Virus record (IMG/VR): IMGVR_UViG_3300046733_000629
Direction: 5' to 3' (one strand)
From: a virus
Lineage: Duplodnaviria; Caudoviricetes
DNA: 64,000 bases
Below, piece after piece: positions 50,560-63,739 of this stretch (its first letter is position 1; each line of letters opens with the position of its first letter). The position numbers were made by a program, and so were the translations under genes. The notes under the pieces are model-generated. The model did no database searches, was not told where the DNA came from, and worked only from the letters and a program-made list of their open reading frames with translations.

Positions 50560-51084
50560 CTACTGAGGATTGTCTGGATCTGAGTGTATTTCGTTAATAA
50601 TACGTTGATCAACCCCTTGCAATTTAAGTGCTTTTCGTTTGGGAGGTAAGCTATCTCGTCTAATATTATCAAATGTAAATTCTTGTATATTAGTTAATAA
50701 CCCATTTTTTTGCTCTGTTTCTTTAAATACTCCAGTGGCTGGTTTTCCATTTTCTGCTTGTTCACCCATAGTTTGCATCTTACGTGCATTGCTCTTTGAA
50801 TAAGGCATTGTATAGTACTGTGGTTGAGGCTCACCAACATGTCTAACTAGATAGTAAATGTGAGGCTTTTGAACTTCTGCCCATAGTACTTCTACTTCTC
50901 CTTTTGGTAAACTATTAACTGGAGTTCCTTGTAATGCATATATTGAATAACCTGTATATAAGCTACTTACTAGTACCAAAGGAATTAATAAAAATACAAG
51001 AATTCTGTTTTTGTTAGTTTGTATAATAGCATACGTTGTTAGTACTGCTAAACAAAAAAGTAAAATTGTGGCTATATAAATCAT
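50560..51084 (-). CDS. Membrane protein (two N-terminal TMs plus soluble domain)
   Basis: Two hydrophobic helices; coupled to the ExbD/MotB-like gene. Confidence 0.7.
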   Translation of the reverse strand: MIYIATILLFCLAVLTTYAIIQTNKNRILVFLLIPLVLVSSLYTGYSIYALQGTPVNSLPKGEVEVLWAEVQKPHIYYLVRHVGEPQPQYYTMPYSKSNARKMQTMGEQAENGKPATGVFKETEQKNGLLTNIQEFTFDNIRRDSLPPKRKALKLQGVDQRIINEIHSDPDNPQ

Positions 51085-51683
51085 TATTGAACTGCTCCAT
51101 TTGATGGCACTATATCTCTGAAGTGCTGAAATATTTCTGTAACTTTACCATCTTTATCTACATTGAAAGCTGGCAATCTTTGTACTTCTCTGAAACGAAG
51201 TAAGTTTCCAGTTATACTATAAACTTGTCTAAATGGGTTTACTTTCATTACAGTAACAGTATAATCAATTACATCTTCTTTCTTTGAATAAGCATGCACC
51301 GATACATAATAATCGCCCGGAACAATACCTCTTATTGTAGTCATTTCTCTGTTTGATTTTAAAGTACGTGTTACACCATCAATAAGAACTACATCATTTG
51401 TTGTACCTAAATCATCTCTGTCTAAGTGTAATGGCGTTAATTCTCTGTTTGCAAAACCTACAGGTTTGTTGCTATCGTGTTGTACCCATAAATCAACATC
51501 ATCTACTGATTCTTGTTCCCATTCGAGTATAATAATAAACTCTGCTTTAACAGGTATATCTGCTTTTTTAGTAATAGGATTAATCAATAGAAAAGCAATA
51601 ACGAATAGCATTACAAATCCAATAAGGACATTGAAAAGCAAGTCGTTGAATGCTAGGTTGGAAGTGGTTCTTCTGTTAGGCAT
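51084..51683 (-). CDS. MotB/ExbD-like single-TM protein with extracytoplasmic domain
   Basis: LAFNDLLFNVLIGFVMLF helix with the conserved Asp; DVDLWV, RDDLG, PGDYYVSVHAY domain. Confidence 0.6.
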   Translation of the reverse strand: MPNRRTTSNLAFNDLLFNVLIGFVMLFVIAFLLINPITKKADIPVKAEFIIILEWEQESVDDVDLWVQHDSNKPVGFANRELTPLHLDRDDLGTTNDVVLIDGVTRTLKSNREMTTIRGIVPGDYYVSVHAYSKKEDVIDYTVTVMKVNPFRQVYSITGNLLRFREVQRLPAFNVDKDGKVTEIFQHFRDIVPSNGAVQ

Positions 51684-52119
51684 TAGACTTTTGTTCTTGT
51701 ACCATTACTTGAACTTTTACAAATAAACTTGCAACCAATCCACATAATGTTGTTAGTAGAGCGGTGCTCATGCCCGCCGCCATGTCAATAATGACTTGCC
51801 TCATACTTTCAATATCGCCTGGATCAATTTGTGAGAAGCTACTGCCTAGCATAAGCATGAAACCTATGACGGTTCCAACCATACCAACAGTCATGCACGA
51901 CTCACCAATAAACCATGCCATATCGTTATCGTCTATTTGTTTGTAACTTCTATAACCAACTAAACCTGAGGCAATTGTAAACATACCTAGGATAGCAAAG
52001 CTAAGTTTTGTAGAATCATTTTCTATAAGAAATTGGATCGCTCCGAAGTAAAAAGCAATGCCGAGTGCGATAGTTTGCATCACTGCAACTAGCCACCAAA
52101 TTAAGAATTTTTTATTCAT
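51676..52119 (-). CDS. MotA/TolQ/ExbB proton-channel family protein
   Basis: GMVGTVIGFM...GMSTALLTTLCGL hairpin; ATAAATA (minus) at 52150-52144 upstream. Confidence 0.8.
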   Translation of the reverse strand: MNKKFLIWWLVAVMQTIALGIAFYFGAIQFLIENDSTKLSFAILGMFTIASGLVGYRSYKQIDDNDMAWFIGESCMTVGMVGTVIGFMLMLGSSFSQIDPGDIESMRQVIIDMAAGMSTALLTTLCGLVASLFVKVQVMVQEQKSNA

Positions 52120-57419: not shown

Positions 57420-57812
57420 CTATTTTGCTTCGATGTCTTCCATACTTCCGTCACTATACTCAACTTCAAAATATTGAGTGCCGTCTTCTCTAGTACGAGC
57501 TTTACGACCAACTTCAGTTACTTTAGGCTTCTTGGGTTTTTCCTGTTTGTCAACAGGCTCTTTAGTTTCAATGTTGACATGTTGTTTCTCATCTTCTTTG
57601 ATACTAATATTTTTGCTGTCTGCACCTGGTACATTATCTTTGTAGAATTCTTTTGCAATTTTTTCTCGAGGAATTGTTACTTGGTTTCTATTGTCAATAA
57701 TATCACCACGAGCATTCAAGTTCATATTACTTACTGCTCTTGTTTTTTCGTGTTTTGCCGCAAGTGCCGCCATATCTAATGTACGCCCTTTGGCTGTTTT
57801 TACTGTTTTCAT
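57420..57812 (-). CDS. Hypothetical phage protein
   Basis: 130 aa; AVSNMNLNARGDII segment. Confidence 0.7.
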   Translation of the reverse strand: MKTVKTAKGRTLDMAALAAKHEKTRAVSNMNLNARGDIIDNRNQVTIPREKIAKEFYKDNVPGADSKNISIKEDEKQHVNIETKEPVDKQEKPKKPKVTEVGRKARTREDGTQYFEVEYSDGSMEDIEAK

Positions 57813-58315
57813 TTTAAAAACTCCTTGATATCAAGTTCATATTTAATGCTATCTATACGATGTATACCTAGCAAGTATAGACAGTAGCTAGCTACACTAC
57901 TACCTCTTCCTACTCCTAGTACAATGTTATGTTGTTCACATATGTTTGCTAAGTAAAGCAAGAATTTCAGCACTATTATCATACCTCGCTTATCGTATTC
58001 AATAAGCTCTTTATATACCCTGTCACGTTGTTGTGCTGAACTACAACGTTCCATTAACCATTCATGGATATTTATGTCGTAATATTCTGACGGCATATTC
58101 CATTTATTTAGGCAATCTTCTACATATGTATCACTGTTACTTTCGTAACTAGCTTTGATTATTCTATCTAAATCGAATGTTTGACACCATTCGTTATATG
58201 TATTTATGGGCTCTATATCGTCCATTATTACATTATCAAATTGTTTGCCAGTTAATACCCCATGCACTAAGTCTTCTTCAGTCATAACGTATTGTTTATT
58301 TTTATTCATATGCAT
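57809..58315 (-). CDS. DNA polymerase III alpha (DnaE)-like fragment
   Basis: RVYKEL...LGVGRGSSVASYCLYLLGIHRIDSIKY..EFL matches DnaE GPGRGS..GSL..Y.LGIT.IDP....FERFL; the ORF is only 168 aa. Confidence 0.75.
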   Translation of the reverse strand: MHMNKNKQYVMTEEDLVHGVLTGKQFDNVIMDDIEPINTYNEWCQTFDLDRIIKASYESNSDTYVEDCLNKWNMPSEYYDINIHEWLMERCSSAQQRDRVYKELIEYDKRGMIIVLKFLLYLANICEQHNIVLGVGRGSSVASYCLYLLGIHRIDSIKYELDIKEFLK

Positions 58316-59510: not shown

Positions 59511-59909
59511 TTAATTTTTTGTTGCGTCAGTTACTTCTGGTAATTTAAATGCGTTTGCATTTTCTTCTACTTTTTCCATGTCAAAGTTAATGCTTTCTCC
59601 ACAACCACAACTACTTGCCGCTGATGGATTAACAATTTCTAACATAGTACCCATAAGGTCTTGTTTAAGTTCAAGTGTTGTGCCTACTAAAAACATAATA
59701 CTTGAGCTGTCAACTGCCATCTTTTTTCCGTTATCCATAATTATAACATGATCTGCTTTCGTGTCAAGTTCTGATTCTTCTTTTAGTTTCCATTCGTAAC
59801 TAAAACCTGCACACCCACCTCCACGTAAACCTAATACTGGAATCTTATTATCATTTGATTCACTTATACCTGTTAAGTGATTCATAGCTTTTTCTGTAAT
59901 TTTAATCAT
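59511..59909 (-). CDS. A-type Fe-S carrier (IscA/SufA/ErpA, HesB family)
   Basis: GGGCAGFSY and NPSAASSCGCGES. Confidence 0.92.
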   Translation of the reverse strand: MIKITEKAMNHLTGISESNDNKIPVLGLRGGGCAGFSYEWKLKEESELDTKADHVIIMDNGKKMAVDSSSIMFLVGTTLELKQDLMGTMLEIVNPSAASSCGCGESINFDMEKVEENANAFKLPEVTDATKN

Positions 59910-60433
59910 TCTTTTGCTCCGTACAATTGGACCACGGGTAAATTATCGAGGCCCTTGTTGAGATATTCCAAGTTAACAAGTGTTACTGCCCCAATAACTT
60001 GGGCACCTGTTTGCTCAACCAATCTCTTAGTAGCTAACATGCTACCTCCGGTTGCTATTAGGTCATCTGCAATTAATACTCTGCTAGTATGACCAAGTAT
60101 ACCTTCTTGTAATGTTAGTGTATCACTTCCATATTCAAGTTCGTATGTTTCTTCTAATAGTACTCCTGGGTATTTAGCACCTTTTTTACGAACCATTGTA
60201 AAAGGTAATAACATTTCTTGAGCAAGTGCTGAACCTATTACAAATCCTCTACTCTCAATACCCACAATATGAGTAATGTACGACCCATCAAAATCTTCTT
60301 CGCATTGTGTTGCTAGAGATCTTACACAATCTCCCCATACGTTACTACTAAACAAACTATTTAAGTCGTAAAAGTTTATACCTTCGACAGGATAATCTGG
60401 TACTGTTCTTATAAAATTTTTAATCTGTTTCAT
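59906..60433 (-). CDS. apt: Adenine phosphoribosyltransferase
   Basis: IRTVPDYP..GINFYD, GIESRGF, VRKKG, LEYGSD, IADDLIATGGS. Confidence 0.93.
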   Translation of the reverse strand: MKQIKNFIRTVPDYPVEGINFYDLNSLFSSNVWGDCVRSLATQCEEDFDGSYITHIVGIESRGFVIGSALAQEMLLPFTMVRKKGAKYPGVLLEETYELEYGSDTLTLQEGILGHTSRVLIADDLIATGGSMLATKRLVEQTGAQVIGAVTLVNLEYLNKGLDNLPVVQLYGAKE

Positions 60434-60704
60434 CTATTGTATCCACATGTATTCCTTTTACCCAATGATACCACTCACGCCATTTACGTTTTGCACTTAC
60501 ATGGGTTGGGTCTTTTGCCCAGTCTGCGACATCTTCTCTACTCTTCCAAGTCGTAATTGTAATTTCAATGTCGCCAATTTCTTCACTTGTTAAACTAATA
60601 AAACCAGGATGCTTTTCACCCAAGTCTCTAACTCTAGTTACGTAGTCTTTATATTCGTCATTAAAGTTTTTAATTTTTGCTATAAAGAATACTTTTACTG
60701 CCAT
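60420..60704 (-). CDS. ABM (antibiotic biosynthesis monooxygenase)-domain protein
   Basis: HPGFIS...ITTWKS.EDV..W..DPTH..AK..W..WY pattern. Confidence 0.7.
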   Translation of the reverse strand: MAVKVFFIAKIKNFNDEYKDYVTRVRDLGEKHPGFISLTSEEIGDIEITITTWKSREDVADWAKDPTHVSAKRKWREWYHWVKGIHVDTIDETD

Positions 60705-60889
60705 TACATTACATGCTTTTTAAGTTTATCCATAATAGCACTGAACTCAGAAATCTCTTCGTTTAGTTCAGCAATTTCTTCATTAAGATCAGCAATACGA
60801 ATTTCGCTGTCTTCAATTTTACGCTGTCTATCACGTACCTTACGTTCTCTATCACGAATCTTTTTCTTATATGTATTTAACTCTGCCAT
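60704..60889 (-). CDS. Small coiled-coil protein
   Basis: Heptad-rich charged 61 aa ORF. Confidence 0.55.
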   Translation of the reverse strand: MAELNTYKKKIRDRERKVRDRQRKIEDSEIRIADLNEEIAELNEEISEFSAIMDKLKKHVM

Positions 60890-60891
60890 AA

Positions 60892-61236
60892 TTACTCCTG
60901 TTCCGGTGGATGAAAATCGTCTTCATTTGGAAAATCATAATACCCACTAGGGTCTGAAGTGTAGTATGGATCGTTATACATAGGATCGTCTTCACTTGTA
61001 ACACCTTTAATTTCAGGAATGAAATGCATTAGTGTTGACTCAACACCTTGTTTAAGTGTTTCAGTACTACTAGCACAACCACTACAACTTCCACTCATCT
61101 GAGTGTGAAGAATTCCTGTTTCTTCATTAAAGTTAATTATATTAATTTGCCCACCATGTTGTGCTACATTTGGATTAATATATTCTTCCATAACTTTATC
61201 AATTTGTTCAAGCAACTCTTCTTTAGACTTACTCAT
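60892..61236 (-). CDS. NifU C-terminal (Nfu) domain Fe-S carrier
   Basis: INPNVAQHGG...MSGSCSGCASSTETLKQGVE. Confidence 0.9.
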   Translation of the reverse strand: MSKSKEELLEQIDKVMEEYINPNVAQHGGQINIINFNEETGILHTQMSGSCSGCASSTETLKQGVESTLMHFIPEIKGVTSEDDPMYNDPYYTSDPSGYYDFPNEDDFHPPEQE

Positions 61237-61381
61237 ATTTGTACCTCGTTTTTCTAATATCCATCATATGGATACTACGTTCAATTTTATCTTCTTTACG
61301 TCTAGCAAATTTGTAACCAGCAAAAAAAGATAGTGCCATTACTGCTCCAATAGCTAGCAAGTGCCATACTAAAAATGTCAT
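61229..61381 (-). CDS. 50-aa single-TM small protein
   Basis: MTFLVWHLLAIGAVMALSFFAGYKFARRKED...; ATGA overlap upstream; below the ORF-track cutoff. Confidence 0.6.
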   Translation of the reverse strand: MTFLVWHLLAIGAVMALSFFAGYKFARRKEDKIERSIHMMDIRKTRYKYE

Positions 61382-61545
61382 ACTGTTTCTCCTTTGGTTA
61401 TCACCTCTTCAATTCGGTGATGTGGATATGCCTTCGGGCGTATCTCTTTAATCTTTTCTAAATATTTCTGTGCTTCTGTTTCTGAATGAAATCGTGCAAC
61501 AGAAATTTCGTCGTGTATTCTAGGTGTATAAATTATATCGTACAT
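61378..61545 (-). CDS. Small hypothetical protein
   Basis: AAGGA RBS before ATG 61545. Confidence 0.55.
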   Translation of the reverse strand: MYDIIYTPRIHDEISVARFHSETEAQKYLEKIKEIRPKAYPHHRIEEVITKGETV

Positions 61546-61555
61546 ATTATTTCCT

Positions 61556-62119
61556 TTATAAAACGTGTTCATGTTCAATGATATGCCAATACATTAATGC
61601 TTCATAGCCAAACCATAATCCAAATACTAAAAATGCAAAACGTGTAACTTTAAATAACACATGAGCTGATACTTTATTTTTAATTAATGGAAACATTCCA
61701 ACGACTATTGCAATTGCAACTGATGCAGACATCCAACTGTATAGTGTATTGTTACTTGCCATAAACATAAACATAAATATCTCAGAACTTTCTCTAGCAA
61801 AAATAACAAAGATTGTAACTAATGCGGCGATACTAGTACCTGATCCCATTTTTTGAATACTATCAACAATTTGCTGTCCCATTGTGTGTGAAGTAAAATA
61901 TAAGTAAATCATCATTGCTGATAAAAACCCATACATTAACCATTCATAAGGTTCTAGCAAGTTTCCTAGTTGCCAACCTAATACAAATCCTACAATAATT
62001 CCAGCAATAGCAGATGCATACATGCTCCAATTTAATTTGATGAATGTTGTAATCATCAATGTTATAAACATTATCTCTAATGCTTCTCTTCCTACTAATA
62101 TAAACGGTGCAATAAGCAT
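61556..62119 (-). CDS. FTR1/EfeU-family iron permease
   Basis: Two RExxE motifs (GREALE, ARESSE) in a polytopic membrane protein; GGAGA RBS before ATG 62119. Confidence 0.85.
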   Translation of the reverse strand: MLIAPFILVGREALEIMFITLMITTFIKLNWSMYASAIAGIIVGFVLGWQLGNLLEPYEWLMYGFLSAMMIYLYFTSHTMGQQIVDSIQKMGSGTSIAALVTIFVIFARESSEIFMFMFMASNNTLYSWMSASVAIAIVVGMFPLIKNKVSAHVLFKVTRFAFLVFGLWFGYEALMYWHIIEHEHVL

Positions 62120-62120
62120 G

Positions 62121-62465
62121 TTAATCTCCTTCTCCTGGTTTTTCAGATAGTAATTCACGTTTGTTTGGTTTATCTTTCCATTCTGCAGCATCTGCAGGTG
62201 GATCTTTCATTGTAGTTATGTTTGGCCATTTTTCAGACATATCGGTATTGACTTTCATCCAATAGGCTAGTTCTGTGCCTTCGATAGCACCATCAGCAAC
62301 AATTGCATCTACTGGACATTCGGGTTCACATACACCACAGTCAATACATTCATCTGGATTTATTACTAGAAAGTTTTCACCTTCATAGAAACAATCAACA
62401 GGACAAACTTCAACGCAGTCAGTATGTTTACATTTAATACAATTTTCTGTTACTAAATATGTCAT
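62121..62465 (-). CDS. fdxA: 7Fe/8Fe ferredoxin, FdxA type
   Basis: [23 protein letters not shown]...[12 protein letters not shown]. Confidence 0.93.
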
Positions 62466-62762
62466 TTATACTCCTAAAATTAATCTTGTATCTTCGCTCA
62501 TTTTATCTGGTCCAAAAGGCGGATCAAATGTTATTTTAACATCGCATGTTTCGACGTTATCTACTTTTGTTACTGCTTCGTGGACTTCCGCTATGATCTC
62601 GTCTGCGGCAGGACAGAACGCACTAGTTAATGTCATAACAATATCAACGTGTGCTTTATTAATATTTATTTCATAAATTAAACCCAAATCATATACGTTT
62701 ATACTGATCTCTGGGTCATATACTACTTTTAAATTTTCAATAATCTTTTCTTTATCTATCAT
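62466..62762 (-). CDS. DUF59 / SufT-like Fe-S assembly protein
   Basis: VYDPEISINVYDLGLIY, MTLTSAFCP, TFDPPF. Confidence 0.9.
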   Translation of the reverse strand: MIDKEKIIENLKVVYDPEISINVYDLGLIYEININKAHVDIVMTLTSAFCPAADEIIAEVHEAVTKVDNVETCDVKITFDPPFGPDKMSEDTRLILGV

Positions 62763-63739
62763 ATATTTTCTATTAGTGGTTTTATTCTTTTCTTTAATTG
62801 TTTCGCCCATAACACATGGCCTTTTTCATTAAGGTGATTACATTTACATTGATGCGACATAGATATTGGTCCATCAACTTGTAGCCATCCTCCTTCATCG
62901 GATGTTCCATCAAGACAATTAAGTCGTTCTCTTATTGATTGATCAAAGTTAATAAGGTGATCAAATAATGTACTAGTATCACCTAGCATCATTTTTCCAA
63001 TCTTGTACCAAATACTTCTAGCATCAAGTGATTCCCATAAAAATTCTACACCAGAACTGACAGCTATGTTTTTAATAGCTTCTATCTTTATCAGATCATC
63101 TAAACAAGCCGCTGGCCCCATTCCATCAAGTATGTGTACTTGTTTATAAGTGTCTAATATTTTTTTAGCATATGCTATCTCACTAGGAGTTAATGGATGC
63201 TCTAAAGGTTGCCAAAACTTCTTTGTTACACCTCTTCTCCAATCCTGCATACTAGCAGATTGATATAATGCATTGCATATATCATTATCACCCCAATGAT
63301 CAACTAGACCTCTGCCCCAACGTTCATTTAGTTGTAAATAAGATTCCAATGAAGCTCTACCAAATTGATTATTACTACCTGTTTTTGGGTCAGTAAATAC
63401 ATAAGGTCTATTAGCAACAGAATTATAAGGTACTGCACTTTGTCCATTAAGAAGTCTAGCTTCTAATACCATTAATTTACAGTTTGGATCTTTAAGTACA
63501 CCTCTAGTAACCAACTCGTTTGTTGCTTGTAATAGTTCTGAGTTATTACACCCAGGTAAACCTATCTTAATACATTCTAATCCTAGTTGTTGAGCTACCT
63601 GTTCGTGAGCAGTTTTTCCACTTATTACGCCGTCCTCATAATCGTCACAACATCCAAAAGTGTGACTAGTACCTAATGCTACCATAAACGGCTTATTAGG
63701 TACTACCAAAGGTGGTTTATTGTCTAGCTTTCTACTCAT
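62759..63739 (-). CDS. SGNH/GDSL-like protein
   Basis: ALGTSHTFG, IGLPGCNN, CNHLNEKGHVLWA. Confidence 0.6.
   Translation of the reverse strand: MSRKLDNKPPLVVPNKPFMVALGTSHTFGCCDDYEDGVISGKTAHEQVAQQLGLECIKIGLPGCNNSELLQATNELVTRGVLKDPNCKLMVLEARLLNGQSAVPYNSVANRPYVFTDPKTGSNNQFGRASLESYLQLNERWGRGLVDHWGDNDICNALYQSASMQDWRRGVTKKFWQPLEHPLTPSEIAYAKKILDTYKQVHILDGMGPAACLDDLIKIEAIKNIAVSSGVEFLWESLDARSIWYKIGKMMLGDTSTLFDHLINFDQSIRERLNCLDGTSDEGGWLQVDGPISMSHQCKCNHLNEKGHVLWAKQLKKRIKPLIENI

Follow-up and report, generated by a model that had tools for sequence, protein, structure and literature searches.

The question raised by this locus is why a phage carries a tightly packed run of genes for iron-sulfur (Fe-S) cluster delivery, electron transfer and possible iron transport. 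The run lies on the minus strand of the 64,000-nucleotide (nt) stretch of DNA analysed here (the window), which comes from the virus record IMGVR_UViG_3300046733_000629 (IMG/VR; Duplodnaviria, Caudoviricetes). Ten consecutive open reading frames (ORFs) occupy positions 59511-62810, with intergenic gaps of -14 to +10 nt. They include genes for a DUF59/SufT-like protein, the ferredoxin FdxA, a small FTR1-like membrane protein (mini-FTR1), a stand-alone Nfu, the adenine phosphoribosyltransferase Apt and an A-type Fe-S carrier (ATC). On balance, the block appears to be a set of conserved but modular auxiliary genes of a clade of uncultured marine T4-like jumbo phages, serving the clusters of these phages' own radical S-adenosylmethionine (SAM) enzymes. 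The presumed clients in the window are 15 plus-strand ORFs with a CxxxCxxC motif (16553-49566).

The evidence for this link comes from the gene content of related phages, in which matches to PF04055 were counted across whole viral records as a measure of radical-SAM genes. The 12 block-bearing records have 25, 18, 13, 8, 18, 11, 18, 15, 21, 13, 6 and 1 matches, a total of 167 in 1,370 kilobases (kb), or 12.2 per 100 kb. The record with a single match is a 42-kb fragment; the others have 6-25. The five block-free sister records have 0, 0, 0, 1 and 0 matches in 589 kb (0.17 per 100 kb). These sisters keep the MazG-p168-p130-GroES-clamp-loader backbone with a clamp loader 57-71% identical to that of the window, and one of them is a 318-kb record that is 85% complete. 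Neither PF01521 nor PF01883, the families of the carrier and the DUF59 protein, was found anywhere in the five block-free records. An earlier note on this DNA had proposed that the genes supply a large set of phage Fe-S enzymes, a proposal that would suffer if the block were equally common in related phages without such an expansion. The two densities differ strongly, and the block tracks the expansion of radical-SAM genes.

The block is conserved, though not as a unit. When the window proteins were compared by tblastn with IMG/VR loci that had been retrieved using Nfu, DUF59, mini-FTR1 and the clamp loader, one syntenic backbone emerged in 18 distinct contigs, with protein identities of 40-99%. 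Its genes are arranged as DUF59, FdxA, [mini-FTR1], [55 amino acids (aa), 50 aa], [Nfu], [ABM], Apt, A-type carrier, MazG, then further genes, GroES, ClpP, Prs and the clamp loader, with optional members in brackets. FdxA and the A-type carrier occur in all 18 contigs and Apt in 15, followed by DUF59 (12/18), Nfu (11/18) and the ABM-like protein (8/18, absent from the closest relative, L001). Mini-FTR1 is present in five, always immediately after fdxA. From these counts the block is a fixed core with optional additions. The earlier note described one operon; it is not a fixed unit, with the permease in 5/18 contigs and Nfu in 11/18. More distant phages have only Nfu-DUF59-ATC or Nfu-DUF59-ClpP trios. 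Relatives of 184-192 kb are about half complete according to CheckV.

The gene identities in the earlier note are right, since every gene it named lies on the minus strand where it placed them, and the motifs it quoted (GCxG, CGCG, CxxC and two RExxE) are all intact. The first gene of the run (62466-62810, minus strand, 114 aa) encodes the DUF59/SufT-like protein. It scores 62.1 bits against PF01883 (cut-off 23.5) and 112.6 bits against the SUF-associated equivalog TIGR02945, below that model's cut-off of 143.4. Its conserved cysteine is Cys66, within a TSAFCPA motif. An alternative start at 62762 (Met17) would give a 98-aa product; the earlier note ended the stretch at this position, whereas the gene runs to 62810. 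No sufB or sufC is found among the annotated genes of the 20-kb locus around it. The next upstream gene (326 aa) overlaps the DUF59 gene by 52 nt.

FdxA (62121-62465, minus strand, 114 aa) is a 7Fe ([3Fe-4S][4Fe-4S]) ferredoxin. Its score against NF045490 (FdxA_Protbact) is 160.7 bits (cut-off 135), and its C-terminal extension matches PF11953 (DUF3470) with 61.8 bits. The cysteines at 9, 12, 17 and 21 and at 40, 43, 46 and 50 form CxxCxxxxCxxxCP and CxxCxxCxxxCP, which is the 7Fe pattern. The protein thus resembles the Azotobacter/Pseudomonas-type FdxA in its equivalog score, both cysteine motifs and the DUF3470 extension, but is encoded by a phage. The flavodoxin and the Fpr-like reductase of relatives lie elsewhere in their genomes. 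The only GenBank "phage" records more than 50% identical to FdxA are contigs of Acinetobacter phage MD-2021a (best 61.7%) and Ralstonia phage YO103_6. CAKLQF02 and CAKLQH02, both labelled Acinetobacter phage MD-2021a, also match Nfu (gntY) and the A-type carrier (ErpA) on separate large contigs, and look like pieces of bacterial chromosome and not phage DNA.

The A-type carrier (59511-59909, minus strand, 132 aa) closes the run. It scores 71.3 bits against TIGR00049 (cut-off 58.8) and 42.7 bits against PF01521 (cut-off 26.3). The C-X(n)-C-G-C ligands are Cys33 (GC33AG) and C101-G-C103, and a C-terminal tail of about 25 aa extends past the TIGR00049 match. The protein falls below the cut-offs of all three subtypes: ErpA (68.1 bits, cut-off 117), SufA (66.2, cut-off 136.2) and IscA (48.1, cut-off 150.6). 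Nfu (60892-61236, minus strand, 114 aa) matches PF01106 with 76.9 bits (cut-off 27) and has its CxxC at C51-S-G-C54. Against the NfuA equivalog TIGR03341 it scores 67 bits (cut-off 269) over profile positions 104-181 of 190; the N-terminal A-type domain of NfuA is missing. These proteins belong to the same families as bacterial ErpA/IscA/SufA, NfuA and SufT, with the same ligands (CX(n)CGC, CxxC and the DUF59 cysteine) and the same predicted role. They differ in that the phage Nfu is the C-terminal domain alone, the carrier scores below the ErpA, IscA and SufA cut-offs, and the DUF59 gene is not linked to sufBC.

The remaining genes of the block are less directly related to Fe-S clusters. Apt (59906-60433, minus strand, 175 aa) matches NF002636 with 161.2 bits (cut-off 125). 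The ABM-like protein (60420-60704, minus strand, 94 aa), a dimeric alpha/beta barrel, has a borderline match to PF11695 (DUF3291; 24.5 bits, cut-off 23.5). A role as an IsdG-type haem oxygenase was considered for it and rejected: no IsdG-like N-terminal Asn could be seen by eye and the gene is absent from the closest relative. A 61-aa coiled-coil protein (60704-60889, minus strand) gives only generic coiled-coil matches, all below cut-offs. Two small ORFs without a family lie between Nfu and mini-FTR1. The first (61378-61545, minus strand, 55 aa) is conserved, with 79-87% identity in L001, L011, L013 and L014 and 36% in L146. The second (61229-61381, minus strand, 50 aa) has a hydrophobic N-terminal stretch and is probably a single-pass membrane protein. 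It is 53-98% conserved among relatives and does not co-vary with mini-FTR1.

Whether the phage takes part only in the last steps of Fe-S maturation can be judged from the surrounding DNA. Over 12.3 kb and 11.2 kb the window matches the JGI contig 3300047357 Ga0494568_000001 (258,609 base pairs) at 100% identity. That contig has a gene for SufE (PF02657, 94.3 bits) immediately ahead of metK, some 1 kb outside the window start, at approximately 1.3-0.9 kb before position 1 (L054:1122-1514; L055:6893-7285). A tblastn search that covered the surroundings of the window from about -9.7 kb to +10 kb gave no match to IscS, IscU, flavodoxin or Fpr, and the contig of the window is not among the matches listed in a metagenome scan with the IscU of a relative. 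The earlier statement that the window holds no cysteine desulfurase or scaffold is therefore correct as far as matches to the IscS and IscU of relatives are concerned, but SufE lies just outside. Other members of the clade carry more. G001 has IscS (TIGR02006, 733 bits; L051:6201-8373) beside an Fpr-like ferredoxin-NADP reductase and a radical-SAM gene, with IscU elsewhere, and iscS and iscU are adjacent in G004 (L052:7713-9368). The order in G005 is a likely queE, a 103-aa ORF, IscU (TIGR01999, 214 bits), SufE, MetK and flavodoxin. A class-V (SufS-type) desulfurase (PF00266, 439.5 bits) and SufE occur in the complete 328-kb genome G006, and a class-V desulfurase (PF00266, 433.7 bits) in G007. 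At the position of the G005 IscU this phage has only 67-aa and 36-aa ORFs, and a 95-aa ORF replaces flavodoxin, which suggests gene loss or replacement. The view that the phage supplies only the late, client-facing steps is thus an artefact of the window: SufE stands beside metK just outside it, and IscS, IscU, a second desulfurase, flavodoxin and an Fpr-like reductase are found in relatives. Taken as a clade, these phages have tools that extend as far back as sulfur mobilisation and the scaffold.

One of the optional members of the block is mini-FTR1 (61556-62119, minus strand, 187 aa), which has a six-helix core and two RExxE motifs. The longest ORF at this position (211 aa), which may underlie the FTR1 assignment in the earlier note, overlaps fdxA by 71 nt, and an internal Met start gives the 187-aa product. 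This shorter gene model agrees with all close homologues (180-190 aa) and with the JGI gene calls. The 187-aa product scores 24.3 bits against PF03239 (cut-off 25.3), and the fdxA-overlapping 211-aa ORF scores 32.9 bits. The RExxE motifs are REALE at residue 11 in helix 1 and RESSE at residue 109 in helix 4. The 21 family sequences, with identities as low as 15%, share no invariant residues other than E12/E15 and R109/E110/E113; R11 comes close to invariance. The AlphaFold2 model contains six helices with a mean predicted local distance difference test (pLDDT) score of 70.6. The two halves of the protein are homologous (alignment score of 61.5 vs 34 +/- 6.5 for shuffles). In a positive-inside analysis Lys and Arg cluster in loops 1-2, 3-4 and 5-6, and the predicted topology is N-out/C-out with a His-rich C-terminal tail outside (averaging 2.65 His).

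Fold searches with the model returned FTR1 proteins first in two databases. In the ESM Atlas the template-modelling (TM) scores are 0.76 and 0.74 (by query, residues 2-187) to clusters that are 100% PF03239, and FTR1/EfeU entries are at the top among AlphaFold DB clusters with TM 0.60-0.68. Foldseek against the PDB gave generic six-helix halves of major facilitator superfamily (MFS) proteins only and nothing at E <= 0.001, and the search of BFVD gave nothing significant. The nearest ESM Atlas clusters are 92-100% viral, followed by Nitrososphaerota proteins of about 195 aa with OFeT_1. A word-indexed search found 19 homologues, all metagenomic and none with a precomputed Pfam domain, and a profile search of 1.84 billion cluster representatives found 32 matches at E <= 0.001. 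There was no tblastn match to mini-FTR1 among GenBank phages, and the literature searched yielded no report of an FTR1 or iron permease gene in a phage. One distant homologue adjoins an archaeal-type PTH2 gene.

Mini-FTR1 shares with FTR1/EfeU/FtrC (PF03239) an RExxE motif in the first helix of each three-helix repeat and an N-terminus predicted outside. It differs from them in size and ends: it has 187 aa and six helices, while PF03239 describes seven helices in a 284-position profile and the FTR1 fold matches have 420 and 517 aa, and in place of a cytoplasmic tail it has the outward, His-rich C-terminus. Its nearest cellular look-alikes are the archaeal OFeT_1 proteins of Nitrososphaerota (about 195 aa). 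The 50-aa membrane protein was considered as the missing seventh helix, but both it and the 55-aa ORF (the latter in several contigs) occur without mini-FTR1, and mini-FTR1 without them.

Judged from the motifs and the fold model, mini-FTR1 is plausibly the bare permease core of the FTR1 superfamily, for which iron import would be the most economical function. It is tentatively proposed to represent a virus-borne minimal six-helix family of FTR1-type permeases that would pull iron into the host during infection for phage iron enzymes, namely radical-SAM enzymes, fatty-acid-desaturase-like proteins and TauD/2-oxoglutarate (2OG) oxygenases. In this phage a fatty-acid-desaturase-like gene and two TauD genes lie 3-6 kb upstream of mini-FTR1 in the same gene run, so non-haem iron enzymes share a gene run with the Fe-S block. 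Divergent homologues (18-32% identity) on other phage-like contigs adjoin fatty-acid-desaturase, TauD, 2OG-Fe(II)-oxygenase and radical-SAM genes. A constant linkage to desaturase/TauD genes was rejected, as it fails in L012, L025, L028 and L169; it is found in the lineage of the window and in one lineage of 32% identity, and 2OG oxygenases are found in a third.

It is also possible, with about the same reserve, that mini-FTR1 does not import iron, but moves another divalent metal (Mn, Zn, Pb or Cd), exports metal, or perturbs the membrane in superinfection exclusion or lysis timing. The score under the Pfam FTR1 cut-off, the six helices instead of seven and the lack of partner genes among those annotated around it are consistent with such a role. 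So are its presence in only 5 of the 18 related contigs and the return of GDT1, MntP and CadD-type proteins, which are related families, in the fold search. On the other hand, the sole invariant residues of the family lie in its two RExxE motifs, by which FTR1/EfeU-type iron permeases are recognised, and the best fold matches (TM 0.74-0.76) are FTR1 proteins. PF03239 is matched by 16 of the 21 family members (best E-value 2.5e-18), and the company of iron-enzyme genes around divergent homologues also argues for iron. The iron import proposed in the earlier note is plausible from the RExxE motifs, the fold and a family match below threshold, with no partner protein among the genes annotated nearby.

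For the block as a whole, a mechanism may be outlined. The DUF59 protein, Nfu and the A-type carrier would load and repair [4Fe-4S] clusters in the radical-SAM enzymes that the phage itself encodes (15 in the window), which would be foreign to the maturation and electron-transfer network of the host. FdxA would supply the low-potential electron to the radical-SAM clusters, possibly via a host or phage Fpr. Apt may salvage adenine from the 5'-deoxyadenosine released by radical-SAM turnover, and SufE may stimulate the desulfurase of the host. Mini-FTR1, in this phage and a minority of its relatives, would open an extra inner-membrane route for periplasmic iron. Published work is consistent with these roles. 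Late steps of [4Fe-4S] delivery are the work of A-type carriers, Nfu and SufT (PMC2682760; PMC4982691), and high Fe-S demand makes SufT necessary (PMC4982691). Fe-S and radical-SAM enzymes placed in a foreign host often depend on co-expression of biogenesis factors or ferredoxins that match them; in E. coli, the radical-SAM methyltransferase TsrM was enhanced by a specific two-cluster ferredoxin (PMC8896826).

Several results weigh against this interpretation. Records with the block belong to one lineage (clamp loader 68-99% identical to that of the window) and those without it to another (57-71%), so the co-occurrence may be confounded by descent and could reflect a single joint gain. Within the block-bearing lineage the radical-SAM counts show no difference with or without mini-FTR1 or Nfu, which makes these two genes dispensable. 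Since Apt, the coiled-coil protein and the small ORFs are interleaved and the run goes on into MazG, RpiB, GroES and ClpP, the "operon" may be no more than T4-style dense packing, and the promoter and terminator scan yielded no assignable transcription start or terminator for the block. The transport component is affected by the PF03239 score under the Pfam cut-off (24.3 vs 25.3 bits) and by the absence of the seventh helix of FTR1. No ferroxidase, Fet3, EfeO, EfeB, P19 or FtrABD-type partner was found among the annotated genes of the 20-kb locus.

A looser explanation is that individually optional helper genes have piled up in a variable region, where each gives a small general benefit, e.g. 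Fe-S repair under infection-induced oxidative stress or nucleotide salvage, with no dedicated coupling to radical-SAM enzymes. The variable composition of the block would fit (Nfu in 11/18, DUF59 in 12/18, the ABM-like protein in 8/18 and mini-FTR1 in 5/18), as would the continuation of the run into the unrelated MazG, RpiB, GroES, ClpP and Prs and the bare trios of the distant phages. Against it stand the presence of FdxA and the A-type carrier in 18/18 syntenic contigs and of Apt in 15/18, and a block-free sister lineage nearly without radical-SAM genes (1 in 589 kb vs 167 in 1,370 kb). This explanation is considered unlikely. It is very improbable that the block serves only one or two housekeeping Fe-S enzymes (the anaerobic ribonucleotide reductase activase, or QueE of the 7-deazaguanine pathway): a PTPS/QueD gene does lie two genes upstream of DUF59, and IscU and SufE come after a likely queE in G005, but the block-free sisters keep the backbone with almost no radical-SAM genes while block-bearing contigs have 6-25 each, bar the 42-kb fragment, and a carrier, Nfu, DUF59 and a ferredoxin would be disproportionate for one small enzyme.

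Service to the phage's own radical-SAM enzymes, the favoured interpretation, extends a concept that is already published. In 16 marine viral genomes, Nishimura et al. (2017, mSphere, PMC5332604) found genes for an A-type carrier and/or IscU, and they proposed that the assembly proteins serve virally encoded Fe-S proteins. One of these, a T4-like genome of 183 kb, has an A-type carrier, 12 radical-SAM genes, cas4, grx and 'paaD' (DUF59) (PMC5332604). The phage studied here resembles that genome (TARA_ERS478052_N000010 in Table S1E) as an uncultured marine T4-like phage with an A-type carrier, DUF59 and at least 12 radical-SAM genes. The identifier differs within that paper (TARA_ERS488813_N000010 in the text), one of the two apparently being a misprint. 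In the published genome the carrier (gene 112) and DUF59 (gene 162) are about 50 genes apart, whereas here they are nine genes apart in one run. The paper and its tables list no Nfu (PF01106), ferredoxin, FTR1 or iron permease, and they report no comparison with radical-SAM-free sister phages such as the one made here. A 2026 study (PMC13149639) reports nifU as a viral auxiliary gene in soils.

The present analysis adds a compact block that includes Nfu and a 7Fe ferredoxin, its contrast to a sister lineage free of both the block and radical-SAM genes, the reach of the clade to IscS, IscU and SufE, and the mini-FTR1 family, for which no paper was found in the literature searches. Phage Fe-S genes are usually listed singly as auxiliary genes, whereas here a whole lineage of abundant marine jumbo phages has a carrier-plus-ferredoxin block. 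The comparison lends support to the view that phages bring along factors which mature their own foreign Fe-S enzymes and supply them with electrons. The block, together with the SufE, IscS and IscU of relatives, could be a ready helper set for laboratory expression of phage radical-SAM enzymes, and the minimal FTR1 core could be a compact model for FTR1-type iron permeation. If mini-FTR1 imports iron, virus-driven iron uptake would join marine iron cycling.

The source genome is probably larger than 350 kb. The stretch is found nearly unchanged in seawater, marine and viral metagenomes of several studies, and no close copy was found in the cultured phages of GenBank. A 39-mer taken from the start of the window has no exact match in IMG/VR. 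The sole blastn match of the block among GenBank phages is the ferredoxin of Acinetobacter phage MD-2021a.

The block is represented in RNA libraries. Fragments at >=99% identity occur in metatranscriptome assemblies of three studies, including a contig of 2.4 kb over fdxA, DUF59 and the upstream gene and one of 627 nt over the carrier and apt. Such libraries can contain DNA, so these fragments are compatible with transcription but do not prove it, and the stretches that they leave uncovered (e.g. 60340-60890) carry no information. Sigma-70-like sites are at chance level (43 found vs 43.5 expected), and there is one weak terminator inside the block, on the minus strand. The TATAAATA site occurs four times in the window and not at all in the block. 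One site matches the sigma-70 consensus perfectly (12/12: TTGACA, 16 nt, TATAAT, plus an extended -10 TG). It lies at 59767-59740 on the minus strand, inside the A-type carrier gene, and precedes the MazG start by about 240 nt. In a scan that is at chance overall, this site may serve the downstream genes as an internal promoter.

The neighbouring genes include other features of interest. The upstream run, which extends past the end of the window (L058:6337-10001, approximately window 64740-68400, minus strand), encodes a desaturase-like protein, TauD, a 187-aa protein of no assigned function, a second TauD, a cold-shock protein, PTPS/QueD and the 326-aa protein, which is rich in cysteine and also without an assigned function. 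On the other side the gene run continues past the block into MazG, RpiB, GroES, ClpP and Prs. About 8 kb from the block is a three-gene membrane module (50560-52119, minus strand). Its first protein (51676-52119) belongs to the MotA/TolQ/ExbB family (PF01618, 30.3 bits, cut-off 22.9), and the two downstream proteins have no family match. An ExbB-like energiser could conceivably bear on TonB-type uptake. Finally, a 166-168-aa ORF at 57809-58315 on the minus strand has a precomputed match to DNA polymerase III alpha (PF07733), although a polymerase would be far longer. The ORF is conserved in all relatives, including the block-free ones.

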